A stretch of 61,671 bases of DNA, filler included, from Rhabdomonas costata (taxonomy: Eukaryota): the NCBI GenBank assembly GCA_019059605.1. It is 24 parts of 24 records of this genome, joined end to end, with 100 filler letters (N's around TTAATTAATTAA, not from the genome) between each part and the next. Parts side by side here need not be neighbours in the genome. Positions count along the whole stretch, not along the records: positions 46,348 to 48,815 come from JAHMHO010003255.1; positions 48,916 to 51,379 come from JAHMHO010003256.1; 22 more parts are not named here. One strand, given 5' to 3'. The notes below the pieces were generated by a model. That model made no database searches. It was given only the letters and a program-made list of their open reading frames with translations, and was not told where the DNA came from. Of the stretch, positions 1-57,174 are shown piece after piece. The number at the start of each line of letters is the position of its first letter. The stretch's first letter is position 1. Position numbers and translations under genes: made by a program.

Positions 1-310
1 TGTTGGTGGGAACCCCTCTGAGCAGGACAGCATTGAAACACGTTTTGATTCCTCCGCTGAATGTAAAACGTACGAGACAAAGAAGCAGAACCATGGATAG
101 CAATATAAACAGAAGCTGAGCACCAGCGGAGGGTCAAGGAAGACCGATACCCCCTTCTCCATCCATGACTTACCGGTGCCAAGTTGGACGTCAGCCATTT
201 TTACATTCAGCGGAGGAATCAAAACGTGTTTCAATGCTGTCCTGCTCAGAGGGGTTCCCACAATACTCTTCGTCACACGCACACGTGATGCACGCGCTGC
301 ACACCCAAGC

Positions 311-10311: not shown

Positions 10312-11679
<1,368 letters not shown>

Positions 11680-11829
11680 TGGATTGCACTGATTGGGGCA
11701 CTTTTGATGTTGCTGTGAACCAGTGTTGTACAGTCTTGCTGTCGTGACTGAAACATCGGTCGTGCTTGTATCGTTTACACTTCTTCATACCCTTCTGTGG
11801 TCCCCTTGCGTTTCCAGTGAAACGCGTGC

Positions 11830-45302: not shown

Positions 45303-46190
45303 ATGTCTACCGCCATGCATGATCCTGTGCCCCGTCGCTTCGACCTTGACGCCCGTGATCATGGCGGCGCTCCAGAAGAGGCCTTCGTGTGGACTTTCTG
45401 GCTAGGCCCACAAGAGCACACCAGGGGTTCTTCCCGTGCTCTTCCGGTTCAGCCGATGGAGACCCAACCCCTGGGCCCTGGCCTGGCGACCGCCTTGCAG
45501 CGCCACCGCCCGCTTCTAATGCAGCAGCACTCCAGCATCCACCTCTTTCGGAAGGGTCTGAAGACGAGCTACGAGGAGCTGTCCAGCAGAGTTGGGGGGC
45601 ATTTCAAGCTTAGCGACTGCACCGAGAACACGGTGGAGCCCGTGTGGGCGCGGGTGGTGGAGGCGATGACTCAGGGCACCTTCCCAGGACGCCCTGGGGG
45701 AGTGCAGGGCGCGACGGTGTCCAGAGAGGGTTACAGACTTTTCTCTATCAAGGTATGTGTGGTGTGTGCCTAAGTGTCGATACCTTGACCACCCGACTCA
45801 TAGCACCTCCGAATTGGAGCGCGCGTGTGAGGCATCGTCCTAGTGCTTCAGAGGTTTCACCTTTCACCTTTATCCCGTGTCTCGTGCCCCTGGGCGAACT
45901 TCTTTATCCTTTTGCCCAATGCTTGAATGCTGGATTGGAACGACGCAATGATGAAAAATTGGATTTGGGGGCCTTTGTGCCTTGCCACAACATCGGACAA
46001 CGCGCTGTCGGTCTGCTGGTGTGATCTGAGTTTGCCCCAGCGATAAAACATTCTAGTGATTACAAATGCAACGTGCACTTGAGGTCCCTTTCTCTTCGAG
46101 TTGGTCCGTTCGCGAAAGGTGTGGATGCGTGATCCCGAGGACGAGGCCCTGCACGCCGCGGTGCAACAGTTCTTGGGGGCGATCCTGGAG
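45303..46190 (+). CDS. Divergent eIF4E-family cap-binding protein, partial
   Basis: The motifs WTFW, HLFRKGLKTSYEE....GGHF, W.RVVEAMTQGTF, VQGATVS and SIK/VW follow the eIF4E motif order (LFK.GI.P.WED...GG.W ... VCG.V.S ... I.VW). Confidence 0.75.
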
Positions 46191-46760
46191 GTACCCTTTG
46201 AACTGTTGCACCGCGGCGTGCAGGGCCTCGTCCTCGGGATCACACACNNNNNNNNNNNNNNNNNNNNNNNNNNNNNNNNNNNNNNNNNNNNTTAATTAAT
46301 TAANNNNNNNNNNNNNNNNNNNNNNNNNNNNNNNNNNNNNNNNNNNNATTACAAACTGCGGGAGGGGCGCATTCAGACATTCATCCAGCCAACCTCGTTT
46401 GGGCATTTATTTTATAACTTGTCATTATTCAATCTTTCCCATTCGCAACGGCAACCTTCGTAAGTTGTTCACTGACATTTAACCATATTCTTTTTATTCT
46501 CTATTTTTGTCGTGATGCTTCCAAATCCACTCAGCTCCCTCACACCCACACAACCGTCGTAGCTCCTTCTCGAAAGTGATGTTTTGCTTTCGTAAACCGC
46601 ACGGGGAGGGAGGGTCGAGTTTCAGCTCTAATGCCGCCATTCTGTTTCGTCACCGATCCTGCCCACAAAGCAGGTGCCTGGTTGGGGACATACGTTGCCT
46701 GAAGATGACTGAGTTTCGAGCCCAGGGTTTCTGGACAAACACTTCCACTGTCTATCCGTG

Positions 46761-48025: not shown

Positions 48026-48979
48026 CGTGAAGGAAAGGAGGATTCCCTTTTCACAATAAAAACCAGAAGAGCCCCGAAAACTTCTACGGAGAGAATGGAA
48101 ATGGGCCTGCGCATTGGAGTGTGGCGTTAAATCGTCGATTTCCGGCTCTGGCTCCGGCAAATGAAGAACCACAGGGGAACCTTTTAAGGCTCCAACAACT
48201 CCGAAGAACTTGAAGAAACGAAAGTCAAAATCCTCAAGCGCACTAAGCGCTCAGTGGAGGAAAGATGCGGATTTCCGATTACGATGTGACAAGGCAAAAA
48301 TCGAAACGAGAGTGGAAAAGGGAGATTTAAGGGCTTCGCAGAGATCCCACTCCGTTTTTTTAAGAGAGAGAAGGACAGGAATGGGTGGAGGTATGAGGTT
48401 ATGAGTTTAATTTGACTTCATTTTCAAATATGAATGTCGTCCAGTGGCGAGATGCTCGGAAAAAATGGGTTGATCCTTTAAGACTAACCCGGTGTTCCCG
48501 AATGTGCTCCTCTGGCTGTGAAGTCAAGCTGAAAAGCTGTGTTTGTGGGGATTGTGAGAAGCATCTGGTGCTGCGCAGACAGCCGACAAGACTGCCTGTG
48601 TTGCTGCCGCTTAAACAATGAGTGCCTCGAAGTCCCCATTTTTGCATGCATGGAGAAAGTCTTGTTTCAGTTTCTTCTTCTGATTAGCTTTTCCTTTTCT
48701 TTCGCACATCACAAGGAATATCACTATTGCTCTAGTCTTCCCAGGAACAAAACACGGCCTTATTGTGATGGATTTGAAATTTCTTCTCCCATGAGTTATC
48801 AGTCACCACCAACAANNNNNNNNNNNNNNNNNNNNNNNNNNNNNNNNNNNNNNNNNNNNTTAATTAATTAANNNNNNNNNNNNNNNNNNNNNNNNNNNNN
48901 NNNNNNNNNNNNNNNGGGTGTGGTGACGATGTGAAGATGAATCAGAATCTGATCTATTTCTAATTATTTTAATACAAAT

Positions 48980-49964
48980 ATGGCATTTGCCACATTTACT
49001 GCATTCTCATCGTAGACATGAACATACTTGTCGTAAATGCAGTAAATGTGGCAAATGCCATATTTGTATTAAAATAATTAGAAATAGATCAGATTCTGAT
49101 TCATCTTCACATCGTCATCATCATCATCATCATCACCATCATTGTTATGATCATGAAAATAATCATTATAATCATGAACATGATCAAGAACATGAACATG
49201 AACATAACAATGAATATGGACATACCTGTCAAATTATTAAAGTTGGAGGAGTTGGACCTCGTGGATTTCCTGGTTTAACTGGTGCTACTGGTCCTATTGG
49301 ACCTACAGGACCAACTGGTCCAGTAGGAGCAACTGGTGCTACCGGACCGACAGGAGCTGCAGGACCAACAGGTCCTGCAGGAGCGACAGGACCAGCTGGA
49401 GCTACCGGACCAGCAGGAGCTACCGGAGCAGCTGGACCAACTGGTCCTACTGGAGCCACAGGATTAACCGGAGCAGTTGGAGCCACTGGACCAACCGGAC
49501 CTGCTGGTGCTACAGGAGCGACAGGTGCAACTGGTCCTGCATTTTTAAATACATTTGGATATTTTTACAATACTGATAGTACAACAGGAACTGTTGTTAA
49601 TGCTGGTTCAAGTGTTACATTTGCATCAGTTGGTGCTCAAACTGCTGATATACTTATTGACAATGCCAAACAAAATATTACTTTAGATGTAGGTACATAC
49701 AACATAACATACAAACTGTTATTTACTGCTTCATCTGATCCTGTTGTTGTTGGTCTTTATAATGTTACCTCAAGTTCAGCAATTGCAAATTCTATAAATG
49801 GTGGATCTGGTCAAACTTCTATTGTTGGATCTTGTATTTTTGCTGCAACAGTTGTAACTCAAATTTCATTACGTAATTTATCATCCACTGTTTCATTAAC
49901 ATTAACACCGTCTGGTGCATCTGCATATGTAAATGCTATTCTTTCTATTGTTCGTGTTGCATAA
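48980..49964 (+). CDS. Collagen-like (GXT repeat) protein with His/Cys-rich N-terminus and BclA-like C-terminal domain
   Basis: About 30 G-X-T/G-P-X triplets are present, followed by a C-terminal beta-rich domain (FGYFYN...V.F...ITL..GTYNITY...ISLRN...AILSIVRVA). The ATG at 48980 is 1 nt out of frame with the ORF starting at 48987. Confidence 0.85.
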
Positions 49965-50403
49965 ATAAAATAAATTTTTTTATTATTTAAAATAAAATAA
50001 AATAAAATATTGTAAAATCTAATGTGTGTGTGTGTGTTTTCATATATTTTTCACTTATACTTCAGGATTAGTTTATGTTTCTGGTCTATGACATATATTA
50101 TCAGCATATTTTTTAACAGATGATTTTATTGCATTATTATCATTAGTAAATATATGAAAATTATAATCTTTTCTTGTACTATTTATTTAAAATTTTTTAC
50201 CCATATATAATATATATCATATGGTTAGAAAAATAAATAATACAACTTATGAAATTGACATATTATGTAATCTAATTTTAAAATATCGTAAACAATGTTA
50301 ACATGTTTATTTCTAAAAAAAAATAACGTTCACAAAACACTGTAATATAATATAAAAATAAAATGGTTTAAAGAAATCAATATATATACGTAGTACAAAA
50401 ACA

Positions 50404-51234
50404 ATGACATCAAAAAAAATCAGAAAAACAAGTCACGGAGGGTTTTGGGGTAAAACAACAATCACGCAGCACAATGAACAAAAAAGTGTCTGAAACAGAT
50501 AATTGTAAAAATGGTTCACAAAATTGTTCACAAAATTGTTCACAAAATAAAATGAAAGAAGATATTAAGAAACAAGTAGAACAGCAAACTAAGAAACAAG
50601 AAAAAAATAACAAAACAAAACATGAAGAACATGATTCGAAAATAGATTCACCTCAACCTCAGACAGATTCAGCTGATGAAGTAATCTCAAATATAACAAT
50701 TGATAATGAATCAACAACTGAAGCGAAATTCAATGTATCACTTAATGCATTAAAAATGAATTTAGCAAAGACAATAAAAGAACTACGAGATACAAAAAAA
50801 TAATATCAAGAAATTGGATACAATGTATAATCATGATGTACATCGTGCATCAAAGAACACTAAACAAGAAGAAGAAAATAAGAGATGTAAAACCAACAGG
50901 ATTTGGTAAATTAAGAACCGTGCCAGATAAATTAGCAAAACTAGTAGGAATTGAAATAGGTACAACAATGTCACGACCAGAATTTACAAAACAATTCTAT
51001 AAATTATTGGAGGCAAGAAATTTATATTATGACAAAGATAGAGTATTAAGAGTTGATAAAGAGATTAGTGAAGTATTAAGTATTCCAATGGAAGTGAATT
51101 CATCAACATATTTTAAAGATCCCAGCGGATTTAATTTTTATAATGTTCAAAAATATATTGCGAAATGTTATAACGTGGATACAAATAAGAAATCAGAACT
51201 AGATAAGAGTAATATTGTATTATCATACACATAA
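50404..51234 (+). pseudogene. SWIB/MDM2-domain protein, frameshifted
   Basis: KPTGFGKLRTVPDKLAKLVGIEIGTTMSRPEFTKQFYKLL..RNL....DR.LRVD...GFNFYNVQKYIAKCY is a SWIB domain of the type seen in NCLDVs. The N-terminal part is split across frames at about 50415, 50797 and 50855. Confidence 0.75.
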
Positions 51235-51235
51235 A

Positions 51236-51279
51236 AAGTTTACGGAATGATGTGAGTCATCACATCATTCCGTAAACTT
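51236..51279 (+). terminator. Perfect 20-bp stem / 4-nt loop palindrome just after the SWIB stop codon
   Basis: The sequence AAGTTTACGGAATGATGTGA-GTCA-TCACATCATTCCGTAAACTT begins immediately after TAA (51232-51234). Confidence 0.7.
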
Positions 51280-51479
51280 AAAATTTTATTTCGAATAATT
51301 ATTATACAAGAATGGTTCGAAATATATAAAGCAAAGCTGCGGACAAAGTAGTCCTCCGCAAAGTACGCCCCACAAAACANNNNNNNNNNNNNNNNNNNNN
51401 NNNNNNNNNNNNNNNNNNNNNNNTTAATTAATTAANNNNNNNNNNNNNNNNNNNNNNNNNNNNNNNNNNNNNNNNNNNN

Positions 51480-54479: not shown

Positions 54480-56470
54480 TTATTTCTAAGGGGATTTAGA
54501 GACTCATGGACGTCAGGATCATTACCCTTTCAATTGGAAACGGTCCGACTGCTCTCGGTGACAATGGTGAACGGGTGCCCACATAGGCTCGCTGATGTTT
54601 GGTATGGTACCAGATCGCCTACGCGGAACTCGTAGTCCCGTCCTTTTCGTTTGGCTTGAGCTACCATGTTTTATTGATTGTCTTGATTCAAAGGCGGCCT
54701 GAATGTCTTTCCAACCCTGTTTCAACCGCTTGACAAACTCCTTGACTTTCTCTTGCTCTCTTCTTGACTGTCTCTTGCTCTCTGTCTGCGTAGAACTGCT
54801 GCGGGTCGGTTGCCTGGTACATCACCAAAGAGAACATGGTGGAATCCACAGTTCAGGTAGTAGGGACTAAACTCTGTGTTTGCGATTGGAGCGTTGTTGA
54901 TTGCCATTTACGCCAACGGTATGTGATGAACCCAGGGAACGGTTTGTTGTTGGATCTGCAGTATTCGAAGGACCTGCTTTAGTGTATGATTAGTAAGTTC
55001 AGCTTGTCAGTTAGTCTGCGAATGTACGTGTTAAAGCTTGCATTTTGATTTCCAGGGCTCTTCATACTGTCTGCCAAAATGTGCGCATGAAAAGCTGATC
55101 CCTGTCGGAGACCACACTTCGCGGTAGCCCATGGTACTTGACAACAGCATCCAAAAACTGTTCTGCTGTCATCTCGGCAGTGTGGTGCTTGTTCTTTGGA
55201 ATCAGATGAACCATTTTGGTTCCACGGTCTGTGACCGTTAGGATCTGTTCAAAGACAATTTGGTTGCCCGGTAGTCGGCACTCATCCACGTTGTCCAGTC
55301 CATTGAGACAGACTGCCATTTTCGTTTAGAGATCTTTAGAGCTTCCTGTAGACCACGCCGTAGATTGTGCTCTGCCTTACTTAGTTGACACTGGTGACAG
55401 GTTTTGGCATATTTGCTGACGCGTCGCTTGATGCGGGGAAATGTGTAGCGACGTTTGGTCATGGCTACGGTACGGTGAATTCCCCAATGTCCATCGTGGT
55501 ACTTTTGAATGATTTACGCAATTCCTGGAGCTCGAACAACAATACGGTCGTCTTCCCACATGCCCCCTAACCGGTAGCTGAATGCTCCGTCAACCGTTAG
55601 GCCAAAGGTTTCAGGATGAAAGTACTTTGCTCTGCACTCTGGGTCGTCACGGTATTCGTTGAGCCAGTCTTCTGCGGGCTGCATCTGGATGGGCGCGCAG
55701 AGATGACCATCAAAGTAGATGGGCGTTGGATTTTTAATGGCTTCTGCGATCAGATCACTGAAGAGAGCTGACTCATCCATCGGTTCTCGCGACAGCGCAT
55801 CAGCGGCTAAGTTAAGCCTCCCCGGTATGTGGGTGATCTTGATCGAGAACGTTTGTAGTTTTTATATCCATTTGATTTGTCTGGGTGCATGTAGGGGGCT
55901 TTCTGTAGGTACCTGAGTGCGGAGTTGTCGGTATAGACGTGCACTTCGGCACCCACTAGGTAATGACGCCATGCTTCCAGAGAATCCACCAAGATCAAAA
56001 TTTCTTTTTCATGAACCGGTTAGTTCTTTTCTGCGGTGAAAAGTTTCCGAGATCGGCAAGCAACAAGCCGTATGTCTCCTTTCTCGTCGTGTTGTGACAG
56101 TGTTGCGCCGGCACCAACTTCTGAACCGTCAGTGTGGAGAATGAGTGGTTTGGGCAAATCTTGAACCATTAAAACGTGGTGTTTGAGGAGTAGGAGTTTT
56201 AGTTCCTCGAACGCTTCGGTTTTTTCTCCACACTGCCAATATTGGTGCCTATTCATTAGATTCGTTAGTGGAGCTGCAAAGGTAGCGTAGTCGGGGCCAA
56301 ACGTTGGTAGAAACCACAAAGGCCTAAGAAACTTTTCACGTCAGTGTGGTTGCGAGGGGTTGGCCAAATGTAGACTGCTGCCAGTTTTTCTGGCATGGGG
56401 CGGACAACTTCGTGTCCCACGATGAAACCACAGTACTCAACTTCCGGTTGACAGAAGGAGCACTTCTGTC
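54480..56470 (-). mobile_element. Degenerate Ty3/gypsy LTR-retrotransposon pol (RT end, RNase H, integrase)
   Basis: Domains occur in RT-RH-IN order. RT: KCSFCQPEVEYCGFIV...KSFLG. RNase H: LHTDGSEVGAGATLSQ, EAWRHYLVG, VYTDNSALRYL. Integrase: CHQCQLSK, WQSVSMD, HGLPRSVVSDRD. There are many stops and frameshifts. Confidence 0.93.
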
Positions 56471-57174
56471 AACCGGAAGTTGAGTACTGTTGTTTCATCG
56501 TGGGACACGAAGTTGTCACCCCCAACNNNNNNNNNNNNNNNNNNNNNNNNNNNNNNNNNNNNNNNNNNNNTTAATTAATTAANNNNNNNNNNNNNNNNNN
56601 NNNNNNNNNNNNNNNNNNNNNNNNNNTTTTTTTGTTTTCACTATTGAGTCCCAGATGCCCTCATTTGGTTTAATGGACAGTTTAAGTGAAGCGGACCAAA
56701 TCTTTGATAATTAGAATCCCGCTCAGAGGTGAGACCCCTGTGAAACCGTGTGAAGGTGATTCATTGATTGACCCACAGAAACTACAATTTCGGAACGAGA
56801 TTCGGAATTTGCAAAAGTTAAGACCCCGCGGGCCGCTTGCAAATTCACACACTTCTGGAAGCCAGCCTGGTGGACACAAACTATATGCCAACCGACAGAT
56901 CTGCAACACACCTTTTTGGGGGCTTTGGGGTTCTCCACCTGCAAAAAGATAACAAGAGAGGGGGGAGGCGTTGGAGCCGCAGCAGAGAAGAGGCCCAGCA
57001 GCTTCACTTAGCGAATCCCTCGCACTGGAAAACCACATAGCTCTTCTATCGCACGGTCAAAAGCTGAGAAGCTGAGAGAAAGAGAAATTCATTCAAAGGT
57101 TAGCCACCTTTTTCCAACGAAATCTTTCCGCCGACACAAGGGGAAGGGGAAGATCTGGAAAAAAAACCCTGAAA

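Follow-up and report, generated by a model that had tools for sequence, protein, structure and literature searches.

A probable giant-virus fragment with SWIB/MDM2 and collagen-like genes in the Rhabdomonas costata assembly

SWIB/MDM2 genes have been recorded in several giant viruses. The gene TetV_204 of TetV-1, an isolated algal giant virus, is expressed early (excerpt of PMC12126595), and SWIB/MDM2 genes are annotated in HeV RF02 and PkV RF02 (excerpt of PMC11953307) and, as BQ1_083, in CpV-BQ1 (excerpt of PMC12085832). Acanthamoeba polyphaga mimivirus has seven collagen-like genes, L71 among them, with lysines that are modified by the enzyme L230 (excerpt of PMC9614988), and the family traits of Mimiviridae include hairpin termination motifs and the early promoter AAAATTGA (excerpt of PMC6163669). 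Giant-virus-like contigs are a known kind of find in protist assemblies, as set out in the excerpted part of PMC10120064. Here we analyzed a candidate in a stretch of 61,671 nucleotides from the assembly of Rhabdomonas costata (GCA_019059605.1), hereafter called the window: a 2464-nt contig at positions 48916-51379 (JAHMHO010003256.1) that carries a collagen-like gene and a SWIB/MDM2 gene. The contig most likely stems from the genome of a mimivirus-like giant virus, a member of Nucleocytoviricota and probably of the order Imitervirales. This reading derives mainly from the SWIB gene, to which the composition of the contig and a hairpin are added.

Like the SWIB proteins of the algal giant viruses and of three contigs from giant-virus metagenome-assembled genomes (MAGs; loci L001-L003), that of the window consists of a stand-alone SWIB domain behind a Lys-rich N-terminus and is encoded in AT-rich, intron-free DNA, the isolates being compared by annotation alone. 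It also resembles the giant-virus SWIB proteins in that its fold model is similar to SWIB/MDM2 structures and in that the aligned family has TGFGK and GFNFYNVQ blocks. By contrast, it shares only 32% identity with the MAG proteins (for the profile query, 29-32%), the window copy of the gene has two frame breaks, and its closest clade is known from metagenome proteins only. Compared by description, the mimivirus collagens are likewise collagen-repeat proteins of an AT-rich giant virus and are presumed to belong to the surface of the particle, whereas the window protein has Thr, not Lys, at the Y position of its G-X-Y triplets and in addition possesses a BclA_C/C1q-like head. With BclA-type proteins (those of the Bacillus exosporium nap and the collagen-like tail fibres of phages) it shares a G-X-Y stalk with Thr at Y, followed by a weakly BclA_C-like domain of ~140 aa. 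It differs from them in that the head is a near-orphan that scores below the Pfam cut-off (26.7 against 38 bits), in that the N-terminal part, which is truncated, is rich in Cys and His, and in that the gene has 7-10% G+C at third codon positions and is linked to a viral-type SWIB gene.

Composition of the contig and its SWIB/MDM2 gene

The window consists of 24 contigs of 2464-2484 nt each, joined by N44-TTAATTAATTAA-N44 spacers. Because the contigs are nearly equal in size, the window was apparently cut from an assembly sorted by length, and the adjacency of contigs therefore tells nothing about their linkage. The contig at 48916-51379 is complete and separate, with N spacers on either side. 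The original prediction had described it as abruptly AT-rich, which holds for the contig as a whole: its G+C content is 0.315, compared with 0.468-0.613 in the other 23 contigs. Third-codon-position G+C is 0.07-0.20 across all of its coding parts (0.10 in the collagen repeat, 0.07 in the collagen tail domain, 0.14 in the N-terminal SWIB open reading frame (ORF) and 0.20 in the SWIB-domain ORF), and the collagen repeat reaches up to 60% G+C through codon positions 1 and 2 only. Given this evenly low third-position G+C, the contig does not appear chimeric, except in its last 50 nt. It has no meaningful 13-mer in common with the other contigs of the window, a tRNA search of the contig found none, and an Rfam scan of the whole window gave 0 matches. 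The contig, its SWIB gene and the adjoining hairpin are laid out as follows.

48916..51379, no strand assigned: AT-rich separate contig, read as a giant-virus-derived fragment (from N spacers, G+C and third-position G+C)
50474..51234, plus strand: SWIB/MDM2 gene, N-terminal half Lys-rich and coiled-coil-like, two +1 frame shifts (from tblastn with relatives)
50794..50800, plus strand: seven consecutive A, site of the first frame break from frame +2 to frame +3 (from three-frame translation and alignments)
50833..51234, plus strand: intact SWIB-domain ORF, 133 aa (from identity to relatives, AlphaFold and Foldseek)
50855..50870, plus strand: second frame break, approximate, frame +3 to frame +1, A-rich without a long homopolymer (from translation and alignments)
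51236..51279, plus strand: perfect 20-bp hairpin with a 4-nt loop, 1 nt past the SWIB stop codon (from folding energy)

As judged from sequence, the membership of ORF 50833-51234 in the SWIB family is settled through its relatives. SWIB was found at E <= 0.01 in 11 of the 12 aligned members of the family of this ORF, and the Pfam SWIB scores of the relatives at individual loci were 28.5-44.2 bits (L001, L002, L004, L005 and L006) and 24.6 bits (L003). The AlphaFold model of the ORF has a predicted local distance difference test score (pLDDT) of 74, with values of 86-91 over most of residues 31-110 and one block at 79. Its top PDB matches in Foldseek were the SWIB/MDM2 domains of RSC, BAF60, At5g14170, MDM2 and eIF2D, for which the probability reached 1.00 although the E-values were weak (0.04-0.6); a PDB sequence search with the SWIB profile returned no SWIB entry. 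The Lys-rich region that the original prediction had placed ahead of SWIB is indeed there, as ORF 50474-50803 in frame +2, and is part of the same gene. The predicted SWIB gene itself is upheld by its family and its fold model, but not as a clean single ORF, the gene being interrupted by the two frame breaks.

The closest relatives of the SWIB protein come from metagenome and run assemblies and are 62-76% identical to it (63-76% for the close relatives over the SWIB domain); the full-length ones have 276-287 aa, and close relatives were located on contigs of up to 490,192 nt, those that encode P0010, P0011 and P0027 measuring 28.7-490 kb. A cluster look-up of the close relatives yielded neither names nor accessions. 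All three matches in IMG/VR were on giant-virus MAG contigs (L001-L003; 29-32% identity, 19% G+C), and a metagenome scan yielded three further loci with 35-39% identity. The traceable relatives lie on compact contigs with 19-24% G+C. Their neighbours at the giant-virus MAG and L006 loci encode SNF2-type and UvrD-type helicases, ubiquitin-activating E1, FNIP-repeat proteins, Rpb1 domain 5, an SNF2-RING protein and an XPG nuclease; further neighbours encode a 2OG-Fe(II) oxygenase and DUF7197. The neighbour genes are all intron-free and are typical of nucleocytoplasmic large DNA viruses (NCLDVs). The Atlas clusters nearest the SWIB query are clusters of SWIB proteins, 89-94% viral, in which Nucleocytoviricota is the commonest phylum. 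Comparison with 50,697 phage records gave no relative. Best matches in low-GC bacteria, which the original prediction had named as a sign of a different source, did not emerge for SWIB: one genome each of 185,579 prokaryote species yielded a single weak, partial match of 45 residues.

The hairpin that follows the SWIB gene has a folding energy of -31.1 kcal/mol (z-score -9.5), which none of 200 shuffled sequences equalled, and there is no T-run directly behind it. Hairpins also lie past the SWIB gene in relatives. Their stems have 12-14 bp in L001, L002 and L004; in L003 the palindrome is the same, but its stem has 9 bp. Because L001-L003 are close to one another, these amount to about two independent cases. 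By analogy with Mimiviridae, the hairpin at 51236-51279 is likely to be a mimivirus-type 3'-end signal.

Frame breaks, contig ends and possible integration

When full-length relatives were compared with the contig by tblastn, the pieces of the SWIB gene were found in frames +2, +3 and +1; in the alignment with the relative P0010, the frame +3 piece (32 residues) had an E-value of 2e-8 and the frame +1 SWIB ORF one of 4e-53. Because full-length relatives align across three frames, we read the gene as broken by two +1 shifts, which lie within ~70 nt. A run of seven A, as at the first break, is a typical site of sequencing error; the second break is less typical in this respect, and the breaks may stem either from genuine decay of the gene or from errors in base calling or assembly. 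In this SWIB family, as in the window, the A-rich linker may repeatedly be a place where the frame breaks, whether by error or in reality. A third break at the N-terminus (ATG at 50404) was considered and rejected, since in the alignment the ATG at 50474 coincides with the second Met of the relatives of 276-287 aa.

Three of the close relatives, P0004, P0005 and P0006, are called as proteins of 81-102 aa that start just past the Lys-rich linker, and the sequence of P0006 is the same as that of the last 81 residues of P0003, which has 195 aa. At 50508-50548, within the N-terminal half of the window gene, lies a 12-nt unit (consensus AAAATTGTTCAC) in 3.4 tandem copies with 96% matching; its translation is a recurring Ser-Gln-Asn-Cys motif, which the relatives looked at do not have.

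Both ends of the contig are set apart from the remainder.

48921..49005, no strand assigned: left arm of a terminal fold-back, reverse-complement copy of 49036-49120 (from an inverted-repeat search)
51330..51379, no strand assigned: GC-rich contig end, 52% G+C, unlike the remainder (from G+C and a 13-mer comparison)

The arms of the 5' fold-back are 85 nt long, 99% complementary and separated by a 30-nt loop. Terminal fold-backs are present at 4 of 24 contig ends in the window (6-261, 46126-46246, 48921-49120 and 56396-56524), as inverted repeats of 47-85 nt that are 95-100% complementary, with loops of 5-130 nt. They look like an artefact of assembly or amplification, which would corrupt gene ends throughout the assembly. 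A viral hairpin terminus was rejected as an explanation of the 5' fold-back, because fold-backs of the same type are found at the three other contig ends. Since the 5' 85 nt of the contig are fold-back, the start of the collagen ORF is not real and the collagen-like gene is cut at its 5' end.

At the 3' end, the last 50 nt have no 13-mer in common with the other 23 contigs of the window. This segment could be a host junction, the end of a chimeric read or the terminus of a converging gene, the minus strand being free of stops there for ~25 codons until a TAA is reached near 51303.

If the frame breaks are real and the last 50 nt are the start of host DNA, the contig would be a decaying endogenous giant-virus element in the nuclear genome of the assembled protist. 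Integration is one state of viral DNA and thus compatible with a viral origin; its likelihood and those of the other alternatives were judged separately, and we regard it as unlikely. The two +1 breaks, so close together in an otherwise conserved gene and the second of them outside a long homopolymer, speak for integration, whereas the location of the first in a seven-A run, where sequencing errors are typical, and the other artefacts of the assembly, namely the fold-backs at 4 of 24 contig ends, speak against it. Similarly, the last 50 nt switch to a G+C content near that of the other contigs, but this tail is 50 nt only, shares 0 13-mers with them and provides no clear host flank. Integration of large DNA viruses is reported to be widespread in protist genomes (excerpt of PMC10120064), which counts in its favour; against it, both the collagen ORF (~320 codons) and the SWIB ORF (133 codons) are free of stops, and SWIB has kept 63-76% identity to its relatives.

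Under the preferred reading of the contig as giant-virus DNA, this DNA may be that of a free virus, ingested, contaminant or integrated. Giant-virus-like contigs in protist assemblies are one of few routes to the hosts of uncultured Nucleocytoviricota. If the present contig were tied to a host, by integration or by coverage at host level in a clonal culture, a mimivirus-like SWIB clade would be linked to that host, and in the case of integration the link between virus and host would be direct, in a lineage for which perhaps no giant virus is known. As things stand, the contig is mainly to be flagged as non-host DNA in the assembly.

The collagen-like gene and other possible sources

The part of the contig upstream of the SWIB gene contains the following features.

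49006..49964, plus strand: collagen-like gene, 5'-cut, with a Cys/His-rich region, stalk and C-terminal head (from the ORF and Pfam Collagen)
49245..49541, plus strand: collagen triple-helix region, 33 uninterrupted G-X-Y triplets (from the triplet count)
49542..49961, plus strand: C-terminal 140-aa domain, BclA_C/C1q-like, putative fold (from sub-threshold Pfam and remote relatives)
49965..50473, no strand assigned: intergenic region, 20% G+C, longest ATG ORF 33 aa, containing GAAATTGA at 50252 and a (TG)7 run

The collagen-like gene was identified within ORF 48987-49964 (plus strand), which runs for ~320 codons without stops and whose start at 48987 lies in the fold-back artefact; on reading the sequence, no in-frame ATG was found in this ORF downstream of the fold-back. 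Pfam Collagen (PF01391) matched the ORF with an E-value of 2.3e-14 and 53.3 bits (cut-off 27.2), Thr occupies the Y position in 20 of the 33 triplets, and the region at 49245-49541 contains tandem repeats with periods of 9-54 nt. The collagen/BclA gene of the original prediction is thus borne out in its collagen part, while its tail reaches a sub-cut-off score only for BclA_C (PF18573) and the gene is truncated.

The tail domain has few relatives. Its AlphaFold model, with a pLDDT of 39, was unusable. A word-indexed protein search gave 0 matches, and an exhaustive HMMER search over 1.84 billion representatives gave two only (E 6e-4), of which P0008 is a collagen protein with this tail and P0007 has the same tail behind a different N-terminal region. 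The tail alone matched 0 PHROG families and 0 phage records, and a single-protein scan of IMG/VR likewise returned 0 matches. The whole protein matched 29 PHROG families, mostly tail fibres, through its repeat, and phage DNA matches were confined to the repeat at 49262-49537, with 66-70% identity. A PDB sequence search with the ORF retrieved collagens, BclA being matched through the repeat only. In the Atlas list for the tail, BclA_C and C1q clusters stand at ranks 9 and 20.

An alignment-based IMG/VR scan with the tail revealed a single relative (L008/L009), with 27% identity and a pairwise E-value of 5e-7. It adjoins a second collagen-BclA_C/C1q-like gene, the two lying in tandem at L009 6379-8063 (plus strand) on a contig of 28% G+C that also encodes a RING-finger protein, DUF5824, GIY-YIG and a 1420-aa helicase. 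Eight of its 11 AAAATTGA motifs are located within 75 nt of ORF starts, 12-68 nt upstream and in sense. From the RING, DUF5824 and helicase genes and the placement of AAAATTGA, L009 is probably a mimivirus-like contig, though it has no giant-virus MAG label. The tandem genes resemble the window gene in their architecture, their 27% identical head and their AT-rich DNA; they differ in that the similarity is remote and in that the viral type of L009 is deduced from its gene content and motif placement. The collagen/BclA gene alone is not diagnostic for a giant virus, with which it is nevertheless compatible. The present contig adds one case of a collagen protein with a BclA_C/C1q-like head beside a viral SWIB gene, and it supports the view that such fibre proteins serve eukaryotic giant viruses besides phages and spore-forming bacteria.

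The NCLDV origin first proposed for the contig is backed mostly by the relatives of SWIB, their neighbours and the Atlas clusters, to which the collagen gene adds only its one traceable relative in L009; of the protein searches suggested for both genes, that with SWIB led to giant-virus MAGs, whereas that with the collagen head found a near-orphan among phage and bacterial Atlas clusters.

Several observations weigh against a giant-virus origin. No NCLDV hallmark gene was found on this 2.46-kb, two-gene contig. Pfam SWIB (PF02201) scored ORF 50833-51234 at 19.6 bits, below the cut-off of 25, and the BclA_C score of the collagen tail is likewise under its curated cut-off. In one Atlas SWIB cluster eukaryotes make up 67% and Haptophyta is the commonest phylum, and the Atlas clusters nearest the collagen tail by language-model features are phage and bacterial hypothetical proteins. 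The intergenic spacer of ~510 nt is long for a mimivirus-like genome. The hairpin signal is present for one of the two genes, none being found after the collagen gene, and the contig, which has one gene start only, contains 0 exact matches to AAAATTGA; it has GAAATTGA only, at 50252, which is ~220 nt upstream of the SWIB start and too distant to count as a promoter. In L003 the total of AAAATTGA motifs is not above chance (8 against 12.7 expected), and in L009 it is mildly so (11 against 6.1 expected, a total reached by 8 of 200 shuffles). For both contigs only the placement of the motif is informative, 6 of the 8 motifs in L003 being located 27-57 nt upstream of ORF starts.

The motif AAAATTGA also occurs at L001 9735-9742 and L003 9851-9858 (minus strand), between the genes for ubiquitin E1 and SWIB, where it is directed at E1. 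The SWIB genes of L001 and L003, like that of the window, have no early-promoter motif in sense.

Nuclear DNA of a second AT-rich eukaryote (prey, symbiont or contaminant), in which the SWIB gene would be cellular, is an improbable source. SWIB/MDM2 domains are common in eukaryotes, a cluster with a eukaryotic majority is among the nearby Atlas clusters, and more distant members of the SWIB family are called RSC6-like by one source. By contrast, the traceable relatives lie on compact, intron-free contigs of low G+C, three of which are labelled as giant-virus MAGs by IMG/VR, and the hairpin directly follows the SWIB stop codon. A collagen gene with a BclA_C-like head is, moreover, unusual for a protist.

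It is very improbable that the contig stems from a low-GC bacterium or its phage (for example from Bacillota with BclA-like collagens or Chlamydiae with SWIB), because the resemblance of its collagen and BclA_C-like tail to bacterial exosporium and phage tail-fibre proteins, its PHROG matches and the phage and bacterial Atlas clusters nearest its head domain are offset by the origin of the PHROG and phage DNA matches in the repeat alone, by the absence of the head domain from PHROG and the phage records, by a SWIB protein with no phage relative and with one weak match among the prokaryote species, by an intergenic spacer of 510 nt with 20% G+C, by a 20-bp hairpin stem that, in contrast to an intrinsic terminator, lacks an immediately following T-run, and by the eukaryote-type neighbours of the SWIB relatives (Rpb1, ubiquitin E1, RING and XPG).

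Proposed roles of the genes and the other contigs of the window

If the contig is a giant-virus fragment, it would have been assembled along with the DNA of an intron-bearing eukaryote. Its SWIB/MDM2 protein, of ~250 aa and with a Lys-rich N-terminal half, may bind chromatin or transcription factors and may be made early in infection, and the transcript of its gene would end at the hairpin past the stop codon, in the manner of Mimiviridae. The Thr-rich G-X-Y stalk of the collagen-like protein would trimerise and bear the BclA_C/C1q-like head, and the protein would be of the virion-surface type, possibly a glycosylated fibre or adhesin.

In addition to what the original prediction covered, our analysis newly reports the 85-nt fold-back artefact, present also at three other contig ends, the frame breaks of the SWIB gene as seen against its 276-287-aa relatives, and the intron-bearing eukaryotic neighbours of the contig. 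In the other contigs, 7 of 129 ORFs of at least 110 aa had a Pfam match at E <= 1e-5. The domains found there, MOZ/SAS, MIB_HERC2, CS, VWA, IF4E, PIP5K and peptidase M61, occur in exon-sized pieces. A MOZ/SAS histone acetyltransferase gene at 10312-11700 (plus strand) is split by short introns, one of them ~80 nt long, and what seems to be an in-frame stop in it closely precedes the GT-type start of an intron. A variant genetic code in these contigs was considered and rejected, since removing single stops gave no clear signal and the stop in the MOZ/SAS gene is explained by introns. Because of the exon-sized eukaryotic domains and the introns of the MOZ/SAS gene, the bulk of the assembly is attributed to an intron-bearing eukaryote. 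On the evidence of its sequence, the assembled organism has spliceosomal introns and gives no sign of stop-codon reassignment, and these intron-bearing neighbours speak against an intron-poor kinetoplastid.

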